This document shows positions 1 to 5,092 of a stretch of 5,092 nucleotides of DNA, piece by piece. Source of the DNA: a virus. Lineage: Duplodnaviria; Heunggongvirae; Uroviricota; Caudoviricetes. The stretch's first letter is position 1. Each line of letters begins with the position of its first letter. The notes under the pieces are model-generated. The model had not been told where the DNA came from and ran no database searches. It saw nothing but the letters and a program-made list of their open reading frames with translations. The position numbers were made by a program, and so were the translations under genes. The stretch covers positions 1 to 5,092 of IMG/VR virus record IMGVR_UViG_3300018477_000019, one strand, 5' to 3'.

Positions 1-50
1 CATACGAGATACATCGGTGACTGGAGTTCAGACGTGTGCTCTTCCGATCT
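1..50. other. Illumina TruSeq indexed adapter (synthetic, non-biological) at contig terminus
   Basis: Positions 1-50 read CATACGAGAT-ACATCG-GTGACTGGAGTTCAGACGTGTGCTCTTCCGATCT, i.e. the 3' part of the TruSeq index adapter (…GGCATACGAGAT[index]GTGACTGGAGTTCAGACGTGTGCTCTTCCGATCT) with a 6-nt index ACATCG (reverse complement CGATGT). Recognised from memory of the adapter sequence; exact contiguous match over the whole fixed part. Confidence 0.93.
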
Positions 51-1026
51 CTTTCAGAACCGTCAGAACGGACCATTCAGCCTCGACACTATCGACCGAG
101 TTCAAAACGCTATCGCAAATCACGTAGTCGTAACGCCCTCGCGTTTTTAAGTCGTCCACCAGCGTATCAATCATTCGGTTTGTTGCAGCCCTATCCAGAG
201 TGTTTCCAGCGCCCTTACGGCGGAAAAGCTCGAGATCATGCAGGTTATATCCCTTTGCCCTGAGCATTCGCGCGTAGTCTCCCTGCCCCGAACCAAAATC
301 AATTCCTCTTGGCGTCTTGGCAATGATCGGGAGGATCAACGACTCATACAGATTTGATTTCAGGCTGCCACCATTACGCAACCGCATAAGCTGCGCATAC
401 GTCTGGATGTATGTTGTTTTCTCCAGATGAGAATACTCAAATACACCATAAGTTTTATTCAGATAACTTTGGTATTTTTCCTTCTCAACATCAGGGATCA
501 CAAACACCGTTAGCGGTGTGCGCGTCATTTTCGCTGCTAATGCATACTGAGCACAGTGAATAACCTCACCAGACTGAGTAGCAACACAACCACCCCACGG
601 ACCATACTTGATAACCAGTTCCGCTATGTTCTTTCGAACATATGCCATTTTCGCGCGCATATTGCCTGAGATCTGGCTTGCCGATACCTGAACAAAACCA
701 TGCTTATCTTCCAGACCGGACACCCTGCAACGCTCATCTCCGCTATCAAAATCCGTTCCGTTATGCAGTTGGTTAAACCGTACTTCGTCGTATACCGTCG
801 TTTCACAGGGCAACACATACACCGCAGCACGCGTTATTCCCAATTTACGTAGCGCCTTCGTCCTTTGGTGTCCCGCCACCAGCAAATCGCCGCGCACTAT
901 CAATGGCTTCACAAGCCCCAGCTCCCTGACGCTTTCCGCCAGCCTCGCAAGATCATCCTCACCGATAAAACGCGGGTTATATTCCGCGCCGCGTAGGTGC
1001 GTTATGTCGTAATTGAGGTGAAGCAT
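28..1026 (-). CDS. ParB/Srx-like N-terminal domain fused to a class I SAM-dependent methyltransferase-like domain; 3' end truncated/chimeric with adapter
   Basis: Minus-strand ORF (track 28..1032). N-terminal ParB-type motif (…LIVRGDLLVAGHQRTKALRKLGI…); C-terminal region has a Rossmann SAM-binding motif I (IDFGSGQGDY) and a downstream YDYVICDSVL segment. No (D/N)PP(Y/F/W) motif in the retained part. Likely start is ATG at 1026-1024, preceded by GGAGG about 8 nt upstream and overlapping the upstream stop (TGATG); an in-frame GTG at 1032 is the alternative. The last ~7 codons and the stop at 28-30 lie inside adapter sequence, so the true C-terminus is unknown. Confidence 0.8.
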   Translation of the reverse strand: MLHLNYDITHLRGAEYNPRFIGEDDLARLAESVRELGLVKPLIVRGDLLVAGHQRTKALRKLGITRAAVYVLPCETTVYDEVRFNQLHNGTDFDSGDERCRVSGLEDKHGFVQVSASQISGNMRAKMAYVRKNIAELVIKYGPWGGCVATQSGEVIHCAQYALAAKMTRTPLTVFVIPDVEKEKYQSYLNKTYGVFEYSHLEKTTYIQTYAQLMRLRNGGSLKSNLYESLILPIIAKTPRGIDFGSGQGDYARMLRAKGYNLHDLELFRRKGAGNTLDRAATNRMIDTLVDDLKTRGRYDYVICDSVLNSVDSVEAEWSVLTVLKEIGRAHV

Positions 1027-1649
1027 CAGCACACCTCCCCAGCCAGCAATGCGGATACAAATCCGATATAGCTGCCATTATCATCAACATAACGAGACAC
1101 CGCGCAGTCAAAACGATCCGCTTCCTCATCCGTTGCCGGGATTTTATGACCTCCAAATGACAGGTACTGAACTTTTACGCCTGATTTGGCCTCATCCTTC
1201 TCAAATGGGATATCCATACCTTCTGTGTCATCGTAGACCGCCACACTCAATAAGTTATCCAGTTCGCGCTGAGTAAAACCAATTGAGTCCAGAGCAAAAT
1301 CATCGGCCGCAAGATCTGCAAGCTCCGCGCTTAACAACTCTTCATCCCAACCAGCATTCAGCGGAATACGGTTGTCGGCCAGACGATATGCCTTCTTCTG
1401 ATTCTCCGTTAGCCCAGCCAGAACAATGCAGGGAACATCATCCATCCCCAACTGAGTGGCCGCAGCAATTCGACCATGACCAGCAATTACAACGTTGTTC
1501 TCGTCTATCAGGATCGGATTAGTCCATCCGTACTCCTGTATGCTGGCAACAATCTGATCTACCTGCTCCACGGAGTGTGTGCGAGCGTTCTTTTCATAAC
1601 CAATCAACACAGAAAGTGGTAAAGAAACCACATTAAGTTGTTTTGTCAT
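1026..1649 (-). CDS. ParB-like nuclease (ParB N-terminal/Srx) domain protein, 207 aa
   Basis: Minus-strand ORF with ATG at 1649-1647 and TGA at 1028-1026. Contains a ParB N-terminal domain signature (…NPILIDENNVVIAGHGRIAAATQLGMDDVPCIVL…) and an acidic C-terminal half. Its stop overlaps the start of the downstream ParB-methyltransferase gene (TGATG), indicating translational coupling. Confidence 0.8.
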   Translation of the reverse strand: MTKQLNVVSLPLSVLIGYEKNARTHSVEQVDQIVASIQEYGWTNPILIDENNVVIAGHGRIAAATQLGMDDVPCIVLAGLTENQKKAYRLADNRIPLNAGWDEELLSAELADLAADDFALDSIGFTQRELDNLLSVAVYDDTEGMDIPFEKDEAKSGVKVQYLSFGGHKIPATDEEADRFDCAVSRYVDDNGSYIGFVSALLAGEVC

Positions 1650-1792
1650 GCCGTTTATCCGCTAAAATCCCCTCGCTTGTGCAAGCAAGTGGGCCTCGGT
1701 TTGTATCCACGGCACCCTGTGGGTATGAATGACTGTCGTCAGGTCGCAACTGACGGCGGTCGCCCACCTTCCAGTAATAAAAAAGCCACCAG

Positions 1793-1822
1793 CATTAACT
1801 CCACAATGAGCTGGAGTTAATG
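1793..1822 (-). repeat. Perfect 11-bp inverted repeat with 8-nt spacer in the intergenic region downstream of the Tfa-like gene; candidate terminator hairpin or operator
   Basis: CATTAACTCCA (1793-1803) / TGGAGTTAATG (1812-1822) are exact reverse complements with spacer caatgagc. On the minus-strand transcript the hairpin is followed about 8 nt later by UUUUUUAUUA. It lies about 60 nt after the Tfa-like stop (1884) and about 145 nt before the ParB start (1649). Confidence 0.35.
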
Positions 1823-1883
1823 AGGCAGCTTTGGTTTGCGCATTATCGCAGCCCCTGATAAGCACAAGAGCTGCTGTAATGCG

Positions 1884-2597
1884 TTACTCTGGTATCAAAC
1901 AGATGTGGCCGTTATTTACCTCAATGCGAGAGTATCTCGGCTTACCATCCACGATTCCGGTAATGACAAGTTCGCCATCAGGCGACCATTCTTCTTTGTC
2001 GTCTTCAAGTACCGCGCCTTCTGGCAGATCAATACAGGCAAAAACAGGACAGCCAGGATGACGTTTATCCTCCATCGCAATCAGCATCGACTCACCGAAC
2101 CACTCTGTAGTAGCACGGCCATCAGCCGCCTGATAGTGAATCAGATACTGGTTTTCGCCATTTGCATACTGAGCACGGGCTTGAACTTCTCCCCATTCGT
2201 CACTGATACGCATTGTTACCAGTTGGGATAATTCAAACTTAAACGGAACAGACTCTGCACCAATAGATATCGGTGAGTTTTCTCGCTGCTCTGGACCTTC
2301 ACGCTTCACAATTTGAACATCTTTGACGAGCCAATCACCTGTGTTATCTACTTTTCGATACTCATCGGTATCAGGTAACTCAATAACACTCATCCCATCC
2401 GGGCAAAGCAACGATACATCTTTCGAAACACTGCGGATAATGCCGTTATTGTCATACATCATCTTTAAAGTGTGAGGCTGAAATTTCTTCTGCTCCTCAT
2501 ACCAATTTCTTCCGTCTTCAGTAAAAAGCGGTAGCACATCTGGATGTTTGCCGCGGGGATCAATAAGCGGCGCACTGATATTTTTTAAATGCATCAT
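1884..2597 (-). CDS. Tail fibre assembly (Tfa/gpG-like) N-terminal domain protein with a divergent, non-canonical C-terminal region (237 aa)
   Basis: Minus-strand ORF with tandem ATG at 2597/2594 and TAA at 1886-1884. The N-terminal ~105 aa (MMHLKNI…EDGRNWYEEQKKFQPHTLKMMYDNNGII…DTDEYRKVDNTGDWLVKDVQIVKR) matches, from memory, the conserved N-terminal region of enterobacterial prophage tail fibre assembly proteins. The C-terminal ~130 aa lacks the usual Tfa C-terminal W..Y..L..RVD-type motif. No tail fibre gene lies upstream. Confidence 0.78.
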   Translation of the reverse strand: MMHLKNISAPLIDPRGKHPDVLPLFTEDGRNWYEEQKKFQPHTLKMMYDNNGIIRSVSKDVSLLCPDGMSVIELPDTDEYRKVDNTGDWLVKDVQIVKREGPEQRENSPISIGAESVPFKFELSQLVTMRISDEWGEVQARAQYANGENQYLIHYQAADGRATTEWFGESMLIAMEDKRHPGCPVFACIDLPEGAVLEDDKEEWSPDGELVITGIVDGKPRYSRIEVNNGHICLIPE

Positions 2598-2613
2598 ATA
2601 AATAACCCTACAT

Positions 2614-2778
2614 CTATCTCATTGACTTGAATGAAACGCACCCTGACCGCAATTGCTCCCGCTTACGCCGAAAAGCTCTCTGCGCCACTAAGATGCGCCA
2701 CAGGACACCAGCAATAACCACCAGCGAGATACAAAAACACACGGCCACAACCATCAGAAAAATGCCAACACCATTCAT
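2614..2778 (-). CDS. Small membrane peptide, 54 aa (one predicted TM helix plus basic C-terminal tail); not in the supplied ORF track
   Basis: Manual translation of the minus strand from ATG 2778-2776 to TAG 2616-2614 gives MNGVGIFLMVVAVCFCISLVVIAGVLWRILVAQRAFRRKREQLRSGCVSFKSMR. The ATG overlaps the TGA of the upstream 68-aa ORF (ATGA), and the stop lies 16 nt before the Tfa-like start. An alternative in-frame ATG at 2790 would add MDSF. Weak Shine-Dalgarno only. Confidence 0.4.
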   Translation of the reverse strand: MNGVGIFLMVVAVCFCISLVVIAGVLWRILVAQRAFRRKREQLRSGCVSFKSMR

Positions 2779-2981
2779 GAAACTATCCATTCTTCAATGA
2801 ATATCTCCAGTAATGTCAAGAGATACGCCGTCCCCAGCGCGGTTCCTACCGATATAGCTAAAACAAACCTCAAAGATAACGAGGTGTCTTTCGCTTTTCT
2901 CCAGACGTAAGCGCCAGCCAGAAATACCAACAAATCTCTTATTGGAAGCGGAAACCAGAACAAATCACTCGGCAAGTCCAC
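2775..2981 (-). CDS. Small hydrophobic protein, 68 aa, two predicted TM segments; GTG start
   Basis: Minus-strand ORF starting at GTG (2981-2979), 2 nt after the TAA of the 151-aa gene, with a purine-rich GGAAGGA about 7 nt upstream; stop TGA at 2777-2775. Product MDLPSDLFWFPLPIRDLLVFLAGAYVWRKAKDTSLSLRFVLAISVGTALGTAYLLTLLEIFIEEWIVS has two hydrophobic stretches and no internal Met. Tight packing with flanking genes supports it, but the non-ATG start lowers confidence. Confidence 0.4.
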   Translation of the reverse strand: MDLPSDLFWFPLPIRDLLVFLAGAYVWRKAKDTSLSLRFVLAISVGTALGTAYLLTLLEIFIEEWIVS

Positions 2982-2983
2982 GG

Positions 2984-3439
2984 TTATATCCTTCCATTCA
3001 TTTTTATCGGATGACCAGATAGCCTTACGCAGTTGAGCTGTAAAGCTCCGGTATCAACTAAATAATCAACTAACATGATTAGAGATTCATATTCAGCCAG
3101 ATAGCTAACCTGACGCATTCGACCGCCGTTGTTCTCCAGAATGTCGGCCACCTTTGCAGCCAACTCGCTTAGACAGGAGAACTTATTCCCATATATCGTT
3201 TTATACTCGCGCTTCTGGCATTCTTCGGCTTGCGGCTGGTTATCGAGAGCTATCAGCGACCGATAACTATCAAGGAAGTCCACAATCTCATTCAGGCACT
3301 CTTTGGCTGCCTCATCGTGACTTTTTCCGTATGCTTCATGGAGGACTTTCATCCTCATCATTGCTCCGTCACACATAATCGAAAGCGCGTAAAGCACATC
3401 ACTAATCGCCATTTCTTTTTTGGTGCTTGTCGAAGGCAT
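2984..3439 (-). CDS. Hypothetical protein, 151 aa, probably cytoplasmic and helical; no recognised family
   Basis: Minus-strand ORF with ATG at 3439-3437 preceded by a strong Shine-Dalgarno (AAAGGAGAAC-ATG); stop TAA at 2986-2984. It sits immediately downstream of an intrinsic terminator, so it opens a transcription unit or is reached by read-through. No motif I could assign. Confidence 0.7.
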   Translation of the reverse strand: MPSTSTKKEMAISDVLYALSIMCDGAMMRMKVLHEAYGKSHDEAAKECLNEIVDFLDSYRSLIALDNQPQAEECQKREYKTIYGNKFSCLSELAAKVADILENNGGRMRQVSYLAEYESLIMLVDYLVDTGALQLNCVRLSGHPIKMNGRI

Positions 3440-3464
3440 CCCATGTTCTCCTTTGTCTGGATGT

Positions 3465-3490
3465 AAAAAAGCCCCGGCAATTGCCGAGGC
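3465..3490 (-). terminator. Rho-independent terminator after the 89/65-aa gene pair
   Basis: Minus-strand RNA GCCUCGGC-AAUU-GCCGGGGC followed by UUUUUU: an 8-bp GC-rich stem (7 Watson-Crick pairs plus one G-U), 4-nt loop and 6-U tract, beginning 24 nt after the TAA (3516-3514) of the 65-aa gene. Confidence 0.65.
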
Positions 3491-3513
3491 TCGTTGTTCG
3501 TTATCGTTACGGT

Positions 3514-3711
3514 TTAATGCTCGCGTCGTCCGGCGACAACTTCGGATTTGTATTTCAGGTCGCCCAGCAAGAATTGCAGTTTAAGCATCTTTGCCGCCGT
3601 GTAGTTCCCTGATTCCACAACCTCTTTCATGAGGTCATAAACGGCCGCTACATCATCAGCCAGGAACTCTTTGCGTTGCTGCTCAGTCGCACGTTTGAAG
3701 GAAATACGCAT
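3514..3711 (-). CDS. Hypothetical small protein, 65 aa (66 aa if started at GTG 3714)
   Basis: Minus-strand ORF with ATG at 3711-3709 overlapping the TGA of the upstream 89-aa gene by 1 nt (TGATG); stop TAA at 3516-3514, followed by the intrinsic terminator. Product MRISFKRATEQQRKEFLADDVAAVYDLMKEVVESGNYTAAKMLKLQFLLGDLKYKSEVVAGRREH looks helical and charged; no family assigned. Confidence 0.62.
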   Translation of the reverse strand: MRISFKRATEQQRKEFLADDVAAVYDLMKEVVESGNYTAAKMLKLQFLLGDLKYKSEVVAGRREH

Positions 3712-3980
3712 CACTCATCATCTCCTGCCGCACATACAACCTCACAAAAAACATCAGCGGAATGTTTCTCCTTGAACGAATGACGCTCAAAACCGCACTC
3801 AATATCAGGCGCAAAAACATCCACCACATACGGTCTTTCAGAATGTTTGTTTTCCCAACGATAAACCGTAGTGACGTTGAAATGTTTTAACGCTTCACGG
3901 AACTCAACGCTGCCAGTCAGGTTTTTTGAGGTCAGGTATTGCAGGAGGTTTTTTACTACTTCACGGTCTTGTACTTTCAT
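3711..3980 (-). CDS. Hypothetical small protein, 89 aa, acidic C-terminus
   Basis: Minus-strand ORF with ATG at 3980-3978 preceded by GGAGA about 8 nt upstream; stop TGA at 3713-3711. Product MKVQDREVVKNLLQYLTSKNLTGSVEFREALKHFNV…CAAGDDE. First gene of a two-gene unit with the 65-aa ORF. Confidence 0.7.
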   Translation of the reverse strand: MKVQDREVVKNLLQYLTSKNLTGSVEFREALKHFNVTTVYRWENKHSERPYVVDVFAPDIECGFERHSFKEKHSADVFCEVVCAAGDDE

Positions 3981-4024
3981 CGGGTTATCTCCGGTTTAAC
4001 CAGGGCGGGTATCGCTCGGTTTCG

Positions 4025-4062
4025 GTTATAACCTTAGGAAATTTTTTCCCACCTGTAAAGCA
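4025..4062 (-). promoter_or_regulatory. Candidate sigma70-type promoter for the 89/65-aa operon
   Basis: On the minus strand, TTTACA (plus 4059-4054), a 17-nt spacer, then TAAGGT (plus 4036-4031), about 50 nt upstream of the ATG at 3980 in a 112-bp AT-rich intergenic region. The -10 is a weak match; a consensus TATAAT also occurs within the palindrome at 4081-4092 without a good -35. Sequence inspection only. Confidence 0.25.
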
Positions 4063-4092
4063 CTTTTTATATAAATCTATAATTATATAATT

Positions 4093-4680
4093 CTATGACA
4101 CTTGCCAGAGAGCATCATGCAACTGGATACCTCCGTTGCACTGGTTGCCCCAGCCATGCCAGCCATCAGGTAAATCACCGCGAGCAAACAGCTCAATACG
4201 AGGAACATCACCTAACAGTCTTACCAGCTTGTCACGAACCACATCAGGCTTCCGTGAATGTTCCAGACGAGGCGATGTAAACGACTGAATGATCCCCGCA
4301 TCAAGGCGAGTCGGCAGTTTGCCTTTTACCGCAAACAAGCAATCTTCACTGTTCGCACGAGTCATATGCCCCATCCCCATCACCAGCTTATCTGGCTGTC
4401 GGCTACCACATTTGTTCCATGTGAAGCCCTTCATGGTCATCAGCCTGAATCCCCATGCTTTCACCACCAGCAACGCTTCTTCTGGCTGAGTCGGAACCCA
4501 CCACATGGCCAACAAACACGATTCAGGATTAGCAAGCTGCCAGACAGGAATACGAGCAATCTCCTCAGCTTTCATCGTTGGATACTTAAAACCAGCTCCA
4601 CGATTCCCATCCTTACACTTGTCTTTGTATTCCCAGGGGGGATCTGCATAAATCAGATTAAACAATGCAATTGCCTCCAT
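4093..4680 (-). CDS. MT-A70-family N6-adenine DNA methyltransferase (phage-type orphan Dam-like methylase), 195 aa
   Basis: Minus-strand ORF with ATG at 4680-4678 (GGAGG about 10 nt upstream) and TAG at 4095-4093. N-terminal catalytic DPPW motif (LIYADPPWEY) and downstream EHSRKP and ELFAR segments typical of MT-A70-type adenine methyltransferases. No adjacent restriction endonuclease gene. Confidence 0.88.
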   Translation of the reverse strand: MEAIALFNLIYADPPWEYKDKCKDGNRGAGFKYPTMKAEEIARIPVWQLANPESCLLAMWWVPTQPEEALLVVKAWGFRLMTMKGFTWNKCGSRQPDKLVMGMGHMTRANSEDCLFAVKGKLPTRLDAGIIQSFTSPRLEHSRKPDVVRDKLVRLLGDVPRIELFARGDLPDGWHGWGNQCNGGIQLHDALWQVS

Positions 4681-4988
4681 GTTAGTTGTGCCTCCGGCGC
4701 TTATCTCCGGCAGTCATAACGCTGGCCAGCTCTACAGCAAACACAACGAAAAGGGCACTAACCAGACTGATTAATGCCCTTGCCTGTTGTGTGCCGGATA
4801 TCGCCAGACAACGCTGTTTTGGTAACACGGCTACAGTTCCGCGCCGCTCCAGCTTTTACCCCTTTGCGGATAACAGGCCCTGCCTGTAACTTAGCCCCAC
4901 GTTCGCCCGAAATGCGCACCAGGCACGCATAAAGATGAGCACGAAGGAAGTAACTCCACCGCGCTTATCTTTATGTGTGAGAGTGAAT

Positions 4989-5064
4989 TGGTGGCCCCTA
5001 CCGGATTTGAACCGATGACCGTGCGATTATGAGTCGCCTGCTCTAACCACTGAGCTAAGGGGCC
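4989..5064 (-). tRNA. tRNA with CAU anticodon; acceptor stem and D-arm resemble tRNA-Ile2 (lysidine, ileX-like) rather than tRNA-Met
   Basis: Reverse complement of 4989-5064 is GGCCCCTTAGCTCAGTGGTTAGAGCAGGCGACTCATAATCGCACGGTCATCGGTTCAAATCCGGTAGGGGCCACCA (76 nt). It folds as a cloverleaf: 7-bp acceptor stem, 4-bp D stem, anticodon loop CTCATAA, T stem ATCGG/CCGGT, T loop TTCAAAT, encoded CCA. The 5' ~43 nt match my memory of enterobacterial ileX; the variable loop and T stem differ with compensatory pairing. Confidence 0.85.
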
Positions 5065-5092
5065 ATATTTGATCTGTTTGTCTGATGTGGCG

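Follow-up and report, generated by a model that had tools for sequence, protein, structure and literature searches.

Tail fibre assembly proteins (Tfas) of the Mu type, among them Mu U/U', P1 U, P2 G and lambda Tfa, are the closest described relatives of the protein studied here. According to the summary in PMC9608196, which cites North et al. (2019), Mu Tfa binds the distal part (tip) of the trimeric fibre through its N-terminal domain, fibre trimerisation is driven by the conserved C-terminal helices, and Mu Tfa remains on the mature fibre; the same source has helices contributing to fibre binding. In this study, we analysed a gene of 237 codons, referred to as the hybrid gene, in the virus record IMGVR_UViG_3300018477_000019 (positions 1 to 5,092; this whole stretch of 5,092 bp is called the window). 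Its product shares with the Mu-type Tfas the homologous N-terminal ~100 residues, including the MMHLKN start and the EDG.NWYEE, YD.NGII and DVS.L.P.G.SV.E motifs. It differs from them in that: the C-terminal helical domain is missing and the C-terminal half is a predicted beta-barrel; the gene does not lie 3' of a fibre gene; and the N-domain carries a 7-residue deletion and is at most 56% identical to the canonical members found.

Other described proteins bear on the C-terminal half. HspQ (YccV) is a Lon specificity-enhancing factor and a reported hemimethylated-DNA-binding protein with a barrel fold like the one predicted here. Proteins of the PHROG 1935 family (57-136 aa, including L33 of phage phiP27) resemble the hybrid in their domain match and in their locus between lysis and packaging genes; unlike them, the hybrid domain has no start signals of its own and bears a 107-residue Tfa-derived extension. 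Tfas with swapped C-terminal modules, such as the 233-aa protein P0139, likewise join a Tfa N-domain to a non-canonical C-terminal half, but the partner in the hybrid is a barrel domain of the packaging region, and no fibre gene adjoins it. What is new here is the combination of a known Tfa module with an uncharacterised but widespread phage domain.

Bases 51-5092 of the window are 99.9% identical to plasmid p48 of Escherichia coli strain 1428 (NZ_CP023368.1); identity to vB_YpM_41 and vB_YpM_44, two Yersinia phages that form plaques, is 98.4%. p48 is a circular phage-plasmid of 48.8 kb and of the myovirus type. It encodes RepA, ParA and a RelE/ParE toxin-antitoxin pair, and has a lysis cassette together with terminase, portal, capsid, sheath, tube and baseplate genes. 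A Mu-like invertible cassette, consisting of a tail fibre gene, tfa, an inverted tfa', an inverted fibre C-terminus and a recombinase (invertase) gene, lies ~22-25 kb from the hybrid gene. The window corresponds to the p48 late region, from the lysis/tRNA/MT-A70 block to the ParB-like genes preceding the terminase gene, and every substantial open reading frame (ORF) in it is on the minus strand.

The two halves of the hybrid protein

Residues 1-99 of the hybrid protein align with residues 1-104 of the Mu tail fibre assembly protein U (PDB 5YVQ_B; phmmer, E=9.2e-25), and residues 1-103 match PHROG 136, "tail fiber assembly protein", at profile positions 2-107 of 178 (E=1e-29). The Pfam family Caudo_TAP (PF02413) is also matched, at 25 bits versus a gathering score of 22.1, but over profile positions 2-53 of 131 only; the part of this model that describes the conserved C-terminal chaperone region has no counterpart in the hybrid. 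Residues 103-222 instead match PHROG 1935, a family of unknown function (E=2e-63), and residues 204-232 match PHROG 8025. As judged from these profile scores, the matches of both halves are far beyond chance. The protein thus has the N-terminal beta-sandwich homologous to Mu Tfa 1-104 and lacks the conserved C-terminal helical domain, as both Tfa profiles stop early and the C-terminal half is all-beta in the model. The gene was not directly downstream of a cognate tail fibre gene in any of four contexts: the window and p48, locus L005, plasmid pOkiPb01714_2 (L011) and a plasmid of Escherichia albertii described below.

An earlier note on this DNA, made from the letters alone, had proposed a Tfa N-domain of ~105 residues, a C-terminal region without the Tfa signature and no tail fibre gene upstream. 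The searches bear out all three statements for the window, and the existence of the hybrid gene, a Tfa N-domain followed by a non-Tfa C-terminus, is confirmed. Its description as an orphan holds at the scale of the window only; at the scale of the replicon, a full fibre/Tfa cassette is present.

The N-domain is of a divergent subtype. It keeps the motifs LKN, EDGRNWYEE, YD.NGIIR, KDVS.L.PDG.SVIELP and G.W. The 7-residue deletion falls within aa 9-24, which are also rewritten to a Pro-rich sequence relative to canonical Tfas; this shortened segment and aa 76-88 are the most divergent parts of the domain. Two further traits set it apart: LPLFTEDGR replaces the canonical W-L-(Y/W/F)-S-E-D-G-K, and D-x-YR-x-(V/I)D replaces the canonical ITANRRAD. 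The closest full-length Tfa among the listed BLASTP matches is ~52% identical, and none of the canonical Tfas in our N-domain alignment exceeds 56%. Neither a word-indexed search of 5.8 billion sequence clusters nor an exhaustive HMMER scan of 1.84 billion cluster representatives had a canonical Tfa above that value among its listed matches. By comparison, the two canonical N-domains resident on the phage-plasmid are 74% identical to each other though they serve different fibre tips.

The C-terminal half had no match in Pfam (E<=0.1), NCBIfam or PADLOC, diverse members of its family had none in Pfam at E<=1, and the family profile gave only a chance-level match to PDB sequences. The exhaustive search defined a core of ~55 residues, FKFxLxQxVxIxxSxExGxVxARAxYxxxENQYLxHYxAADGRAxxxWFxESxL, which is widespread as stand-alone proteins of 57-136 aa and also occurs in tandem or after other N-terminal regions. 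The invariant E134, G136 and Y151 of this core are present in the hybrid, as are the near-invariant F119, R141, Y155, A162 and W166. A 1167-aa protein, P0141, with 11 matching stretches was rejected as a family member; it is highly repetitive and the matches are spurious. When AlphaFold2 was given a diverse alignment, the C-terminal domain was modelled with a mean predicted local distance difference test score (pLDDT) of 81.6 and ten-residue block means of 86-98 over aa 111-190; an alignment of 75 close enterobacterial homologues alone gave 44.5. The predicted fold is a small five-stranded barrel. The extension at aa 191-237, which is missing from homologues of 94-98 aa, is modelled at low pLDDT (55-60) with predicted beta-hairpins.

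The best Foldseek match in PDB was 5YCQ, E. coli HspQ (E=1.1e-3), and the model has the kinked five-stranded beta-barrel of the YccV/HspQ-like family (PF08755). The sequence does not belong to the profile of that family, the two proteins are only 18-20% identical, and many Tudor, KOW, chromo, PWWP and SH3-like barrels score almost equally. In the predicted model, the likeness to HspQ/YccV is therefore one of fold and not of family membership. A fold search of BFVD found small uncharacterised phage proteins only. As modelled, the C-terminal half is clearly something other than the alpha-helical C-terminal domain of Tfas.

The locations of the homologues agree with that of the window gene, which lies in the late region beside lysis and packaging genes. 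Lambdoid prophages carry a 98-aa homologue between the holin/endolysin block and the small (DUF1441) and large terminase subunit genes; L33 of the Stx2e phage phiP27 is directly upstream of the cos site and the terminase genes; P2-like ESSI2 phages have the homologue between terS and the head adaptor gene; and gp32 of Bcep176 lies amid small genes of unknown function. In none of the contexts looked at did a homologue follow a tail fibre gene. Thus, a canonical Tfa chaperone domain with homologues sitting behind fibre genes, the outcome named in the earlier note as fatal to its proposal, was not what we found.

Annotation and integrity of the gene

The hybrid ORF is 100% identical in the plasmids of E. 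coli p48 and FDAARGOS_1337. In the record of vB_YpM_41 the same ORF is annotated as a full-length coding sequence of 714 nt, and its product is identical to that of the window over the N-domain (100%) and 96.1% identical over the C-domain; vB_YpM_41 and vB_YpM_44, both plaque-forming, carry the intact hybrid. The architecture has been deposited many times, in GenBank under the names "tail fiber assembly protein" or "hypothetical protein". RefSeq PGAP, as seen in p48 and pOkiPb01714_2, divides the ORF between a pseudogene ("tail fiber assembly protein, missing C-terminus") and a 141-aa hypothetical protein that starts at a GTG (V97). Between V97 and M130, we found no in-frame start preceded by a ribosome-binding site in the window. 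The papers that name the related phages neither mention nor characterise the hybrid gene.

Origin of the hybrid gene by recombination

The hybrid gene was demonstrably generated by recombination. Unfused sibling phage-plasmids such as NZ_CP032259 have at this position a stand-alone gene for the C-domain only, whose 136-aa product has the N-terminus MEKKEDKPIAIGAESVPFKF; the stand-alone allele is 96-99% identical to the hybrid C-domain at the nucleotide level. BLAST comparison with the unfused sibling L002 placed the breakpoints at 2274/2275 and 2647/2648. Between them, the window has a 373-bp patch, comprising 50 bp of upstream sequence and codons 1-107, where the sibling has 91 bp. This shorter segment includes the last part of a small membrane ORF together with a terminator-like hairpin, as well as the AGGTGA ribosome-binding site and the start codon (ATG) of the stand-alone gene. 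All three signals of the stand-alone gene (terminator, AGGTGA and ATG) are gone in the window, and the barrel continues in frame from the Tfa N-domain. As its own start signals are lost and no internal start has a ribosome-binding site before it, the barrel is most plausibly translated only within the hybrid.

At 98.9% identity or more, the patch was found in this phage-plasmid lineage only. No donor tfa gene was found, as canonical tfa genes match the patch at no more than ~80% over 93 nt; the resident tfa genes were considered as donors and rejected, with only ~80% identity over 61-93 nt and 52-54% protein identity. The ~25 nt before the hybrid ATG bear a loose likeness to the 3' ends of the resident fibre genes, which would fit an origin at a fibre/tfa junction.

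Recurrence and conservation of the fusion

Three types of the hybrid were found. The 237-aa type of the window is represented by 63 distinct sequences in a 90%-identity cluster, on well over 100 contigs of ~48-49 kb. A 222-aa type (P0033; 11 distinct sequences) has the same phage-plasmid context and is 91% identical to the window protein over the N-domain and only 74% over the C-domain. Most of the distinct sequences listed for these two clusters (74 in total) have an uninterrupted full-length ORF; truncated variants are P0290, P0284 and P0288/P0289. The third type, of 191 aa (WP_273821944.1), was detected by blastn with the patch on the conjugative IncF plasmid pEA5_1 of E. albertii, and has the barrel core joined to the Tfa N-domain by a linker of 15 residues. 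Its identity to the window protein is 56-57% over the N-domain and 51% over the C-domain. Here (L010) the gene is monocistronic in AT-rich DNA, with no annotated phage genes within ~5 kb; at L010 2254-4729, the hybrid gene, of 30% GC, lies ~520 bp downstream of the gene for a 459-aa radical SAM protein. The same N-subtype is thus joined to three C-domain alleles. A search seeded with the E. albertii protein found no further diverged hybrids. A 123-aa entry named "tail fiber assembly protein" was at first sight a stand-alone Tfa N-domain; it was rejected as such, since it results from an IS3-family insertion sequence (IS) that interrupts the hybrid gene in the copy L012.

The hybrid N-domains, that of E. 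albertii included, keep all fold-core motifs. Between the window and E. albertii, nonsynonymous divergence (dN) is 0.32 for the N-domain, at saturated synonymous divergence (dS >2), and 0.39 for the C-domain. On the assumption of a common fused ancestor, this N-domain value at saturated dS would be a signature of constraint comparable to that on the C-domain. The hybrid N-domains also look like a lineage of their own when their sequences are compared: they have in common the 7-residue deletion and both of the replaced motifs described above, and the window and E. albertii genes agree at 13 of 25 nt upstream of the start and at 25 of 27 nt of 5' coding sequence, and canonical tfa genes at only 7-9 of 25 and 21-22 of 27, respectively. 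In the ~12 nt before the start, too, the window gene is closer to the E. albertii gene than to canonical tfa genes.

Weighing the explanations

The explanation we prefer, to which we give about an even chance of being right, is that the product of the ORF is genuine and maintained: an accessory late protein of two domains, and not a chaperone, in a myovirus phage-plasmid of ~48 kb. The ancestral occupant of the locus is a small stand-alone PHROG 1935 barrel protein. Recombination took out the terminator, ribosome-binding site and ATG of this gene and put in a complete Tfa N-domain, in frame; the barrel would now be made only as part of the hybrid. As the helical C-terminal domain that serves fibre trimerisation is missing, the product should not act as a tail fibre assembly chaperone. 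The Tfa-derived beta-sandwich would most likely be a protein-binding or targeting module that tethers the barrel to a partner. This partner might be the fibre tip; alternatively, as aa 9-24 and 76-88 are rewritten and may be equivalent to the fibre-binding helices, the target may have changed. The earlier note had offered two origins, a recombination-generated remnant or reuse of the Tfa N-domain as a module. These are not exclusive: the recombination is documented by the patch, and the diverged recurrence of the hybrid, including the IncF copy in E. albertii, favours module reuse over a dead remnant.

Several observations weigh against this explanation. Within the phage-plasmid lineage the ratio of dN to dS (omega) of the N-domain is 0.37-0.54, from 3-9 amino-acid changes, and is indistinguishable from neutrality. 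A neighbour-joining tree recovers the hybrid N-domains as one group with a bootstrap of 55% only, so that the argument for a separate lineage rests on the shared indel and motif characters; dS in the comparison with E. albertii is unreliable because of the 30% GC of that gene, and no second sequence of the E. albertii type was present in the collections searched. Matches to the hybrid gene came from 63 E. coli genome records, nearly all of them of plasmids. Only six of these span 80% or more of the gene; the other 57 match the C-terminal part alone, from nt 324 (~aa 108) onwards in those listed, and most siblings are thus without the N-domain. One copy (L012 2948-4176; E. coli JBQREL010000003.1) has an IS3-family transposase after codon ~120. 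Other fusion-bearing plasmids were absent from the best matches to the p48 fibre cassette; no particular fibre allele is inherited together with the hybrid, which speaks against its being closely matched to the resident fibre. The Pro-rich aa 9-24 may correspond to a fibre-contacting helix of Mu Tfa, and fibre binding may then have been lost.

The neutral-looking omega and the many siblings without the N-domain would also be accounted for if the N-domain were an in-frame passenger, in our view the main rival explanation, though the less likely one. Recombination between a fibre/tfa junction and this variable late region would have left a Tfa N-domain in frame, only the barrel would be functional and would tolerate a 107-residue extension, and the frame would be kept solely because the barrel needs the Tfa start codon. 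This is consistent with a locus at which two patches are exchanged independently (pOkiPb01714_2 has one of them), with the likeness of the ~25 nt before the ATG to a degraded tail fibre 3' end, with the near-identity of the C-domain to stand-alone alleles, and with the treatment of the hybrid as a fragment by PGAP. A neutral extension, however, should have lost its fold motifs at synonymous saturation, and the E. albertii protein keeps them at a dN close to that of the C-domain; moreover, no donor-like canonical Tfa was present among the database matches listed (52-56% at best), and one N-subtype is found with three different C-domain alleles. The PGAP annotation, together with the IS3-family insertion and the few truncated variants, could be taken further to mean a dead gene, that is, a tfa pseudogene followed by a hypothetical protein made from the GTG at V97, with neither the hybrid nor its N-terminal part produced. 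We consider this very improbable: the ORF is intact in most of the listed cluster sequences and in viable phages, GTG97 has no ribosome-binding site (the hybrid ATGATG is preceded by a likely one, AGGG), and both the Yersinia phage record and most of the listed named GenBank entries have the full-length coding sequence or protein (237 aa).

The N-domain might instead still bind Mu/P1-type fibre tips, making the protein a non-canonical chaperone, a fibre-tip decoration or a decoy: the barrel would replace the helical oligomerisation module, ride on the fibre, or block the assembly of a competitor's fibre. The N-domain does correspond to the fibre-binding part of Mu Tfa, a protein that stays on the mature fibre according to the summary in PMC9608196; the replicon encodes Mu-like invertible fibres, and Tfa N-domains are naturally shuffled onto other C-termini, as in P0139. 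Against this stand the lack of linkage to any fibre allele, the four contexts without an adjacent fibre gene, the association of stand-alone barrels with lysis and packaging genes rather than tail genes, the absence of a PADLOC match to the hybrid, and the divergence from canonical Tfas, which is greatest in segments that may contact the fibre. We regard this explanation as improbable. It is likewise unlikely that the hybrid is an inter-phage competition or fibre-modulating factor that docks on Mu/P1/P2-type fibre tips, its own or those of a rival, as a dominant-negative chaperone or to deliver the barrel. Without the trimerising helices, such a protein would poison fibre assembly; alternatively, an HspQ-like barrel would be brought to the fibre as a protease-adaptor-like or surface-decorating module. 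In that case, a domain from a structural chaperone would now do the targeting for a non-structural function.

If the hybrid is functional, as in the two-domain protein that we prefer, then: the fibre-binding half of Tfa would be detachable from assembly and reusable as a docking module; and annotations as "tail fiber assembly protein" may hide more than fibre assembly. In any case, neither the GenBank names nor the RefSeq pair of pseudogene and hypothetical protein describes the hybrid well. The barrel domain, widespread beside phage lysis and packaging genes and outside Pfam, offers an entry to an uncharacterised family. The immediate impact is modest because the hybrid family is small, lineage-restricted and without a known phenotype. 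The phages vB_YpM_41 and vB_YpM_44, with the patch, and the closely related vB_YpM_39, without it, form a natural comparison set.

Neighbouring genes and the mosaic locus

The coordinates of the hybrid gene, its parts and its neighbours are given in Table 1.

Table 1. Features of the hybrid gene and of the locus around it (positions in the window)
Feature	Position	Strand	Remarks
Hybrid ORF	1884..2597	-	237 aa + stop, ATG start
C-terminal extension, aa 191-237	1887..2027	-	only in 130-136-aa and hybrid versions
SH3/Tudor-like (YccV/HspQ-like) beta-barrel core, PHROG 1935 family, aa 119-190	2028..2243	-	
Linker, aa 101-118 (GPEQRENSPISIGAESVP)	2244..2297	-	right recombination breakpoint (2274/2275) inside; homology to unfused L002 starts at 2274
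Tfa N-terminal (fibre-binding) domain, divergent subtype, aa 1-100	2298..2597	-	5YVQ_B and PHROG 136 matches
Mosaic patch, 373 bp (50 bp upstream + codons 1-107)	2275..2647	-	BLAST breakpoints vs L002
Likely ribosome-binding site, AGGG	2606..2609	-	8 nt before ATGATG; read from the letters
Small single-pass membrane ORF	2614..2790	-	58 aa; probable start MNGVG, 54 aa; 3' end inside patch
Small two-helix membrane ORF	2775..2981	-	68 aa; unannotated by PGAP
151-aa protein, PHROG 14707 (function unknown)	2984..3439	-	first gene after terminator; mosaic
Intrinsic terminator-like hairpin	3469..3492	-	10-bp stem, 7 GC pairs, T-run; between 66-aa and 151-aa ORFs

The earlier note had placed the hybrid gene at the end of a tightly packed run with the 151-aa protein and the two small membrane proteins. 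This run is present in the window; it is not specific to the hybrid. Both membrane ORFs occur with or without the fusion (98% nucleotide identity in the unfused L002), and the single-pass one is annotated in the unfused sibling as the 50-aa protein WP_001523048.1. Window bases 2975-3266 are replaced both in L002 and in the fusion-bearing pOkiPb01714_2, which have a 99-aa allele in place of the 151-aa gene. This second patch is therefore exchanged independently of the Tfa patch, as pOkiPb01714_2 has only one of the two. A partnership in an operon between the hybrid and the 151-aa and membrane ORFs was therefore rejected: the membrane ORFs are present in unfused siblings, and the 151-aa gene is swapped in pOkiPb01714_2. 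Rather than a dedicated operon, the locus is a hot spot of mosaicism, where two or more patches have been exchanged independently of each other. With the hairpin upstream of it, the run could be expressed only by read-through or from an unrecognised promoter. The 151-aa protein and the 99-aa protein of sibling plasmids (PHROG 8319) agree in their N-terminal ~58-65 residues only.

PADLOC gave no match for the hybrid, both membrane ORFs or the 151-aa protein. A role as effector, exclusion or defence/anti-defence component, also suggested in the earlier note, found no support from this search or from any conserved partnership with the membrane proteins.

Other features of the window

The hybrid gene is flanked, at 28-1649 (-) and 4093-4680 (-), by genes for an MT-A70 methyltransferase, a ParB/Srx-domain protein and a fusion of ParB_N with a methyltransferase. 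Only the methyltransferases and ParB-like proteins of the window had PADLOC matches, to "MTase_II" models. The occurrence of DNA-modification-type genes around an HspQ-like barrel, HspQ being reported to bind hemimethylated DNA, may be a coincidence. The ORF at 28..1032 (-), of 334 aa, is a truncated copy of the 457-aa ParB_N + methyltransferase gene. An Illumina TruSeq index adapter (CATACGAGAT-index-GTGACTGGAGTTCAGACGTGTGCTCTTCCGATCT) makes up window bases 1-50; the window is homologous to the plasmid from base 51 on, and the end of the contig at the adapter is an assembly artefact.

A tRNA with a CAT anticodon is encoded at 4989-5064 (-). ARAGORN, Rfam and the phage records call it tRNA-Met, and RefSeq labels it tRNA-Ile, which we take to mean the lysidine-modified type. 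Besides this tRNA, an Rfam scan of the window found no family at the gathering score.

A sequence of ~120 bp is present in three copies of 95-97% identity on the phage-plasmid (window 3976-4101 (-), L001 2012-2137 and L001 11486-11604). The copies run up to the start codons (ATG) of three different genes: the 89-aa ORF at 3980, one annotated as hypothetical, and one of the DUF3560 family. With TTTACA-17 nt-TAAGGT and a GGAGA ribosome-binding site, the sequence resembles a portable cassette of promoter and 5' untranslated region, or a shared regulatory region. The record of vB_YpM_41 (L004) lacks 241 bp (window 3716-3956), which is most of the 89-aa ORF (PHROG 6143); since this phage forms plaques, the 89-aa ORF is dispensable for plaque formation.

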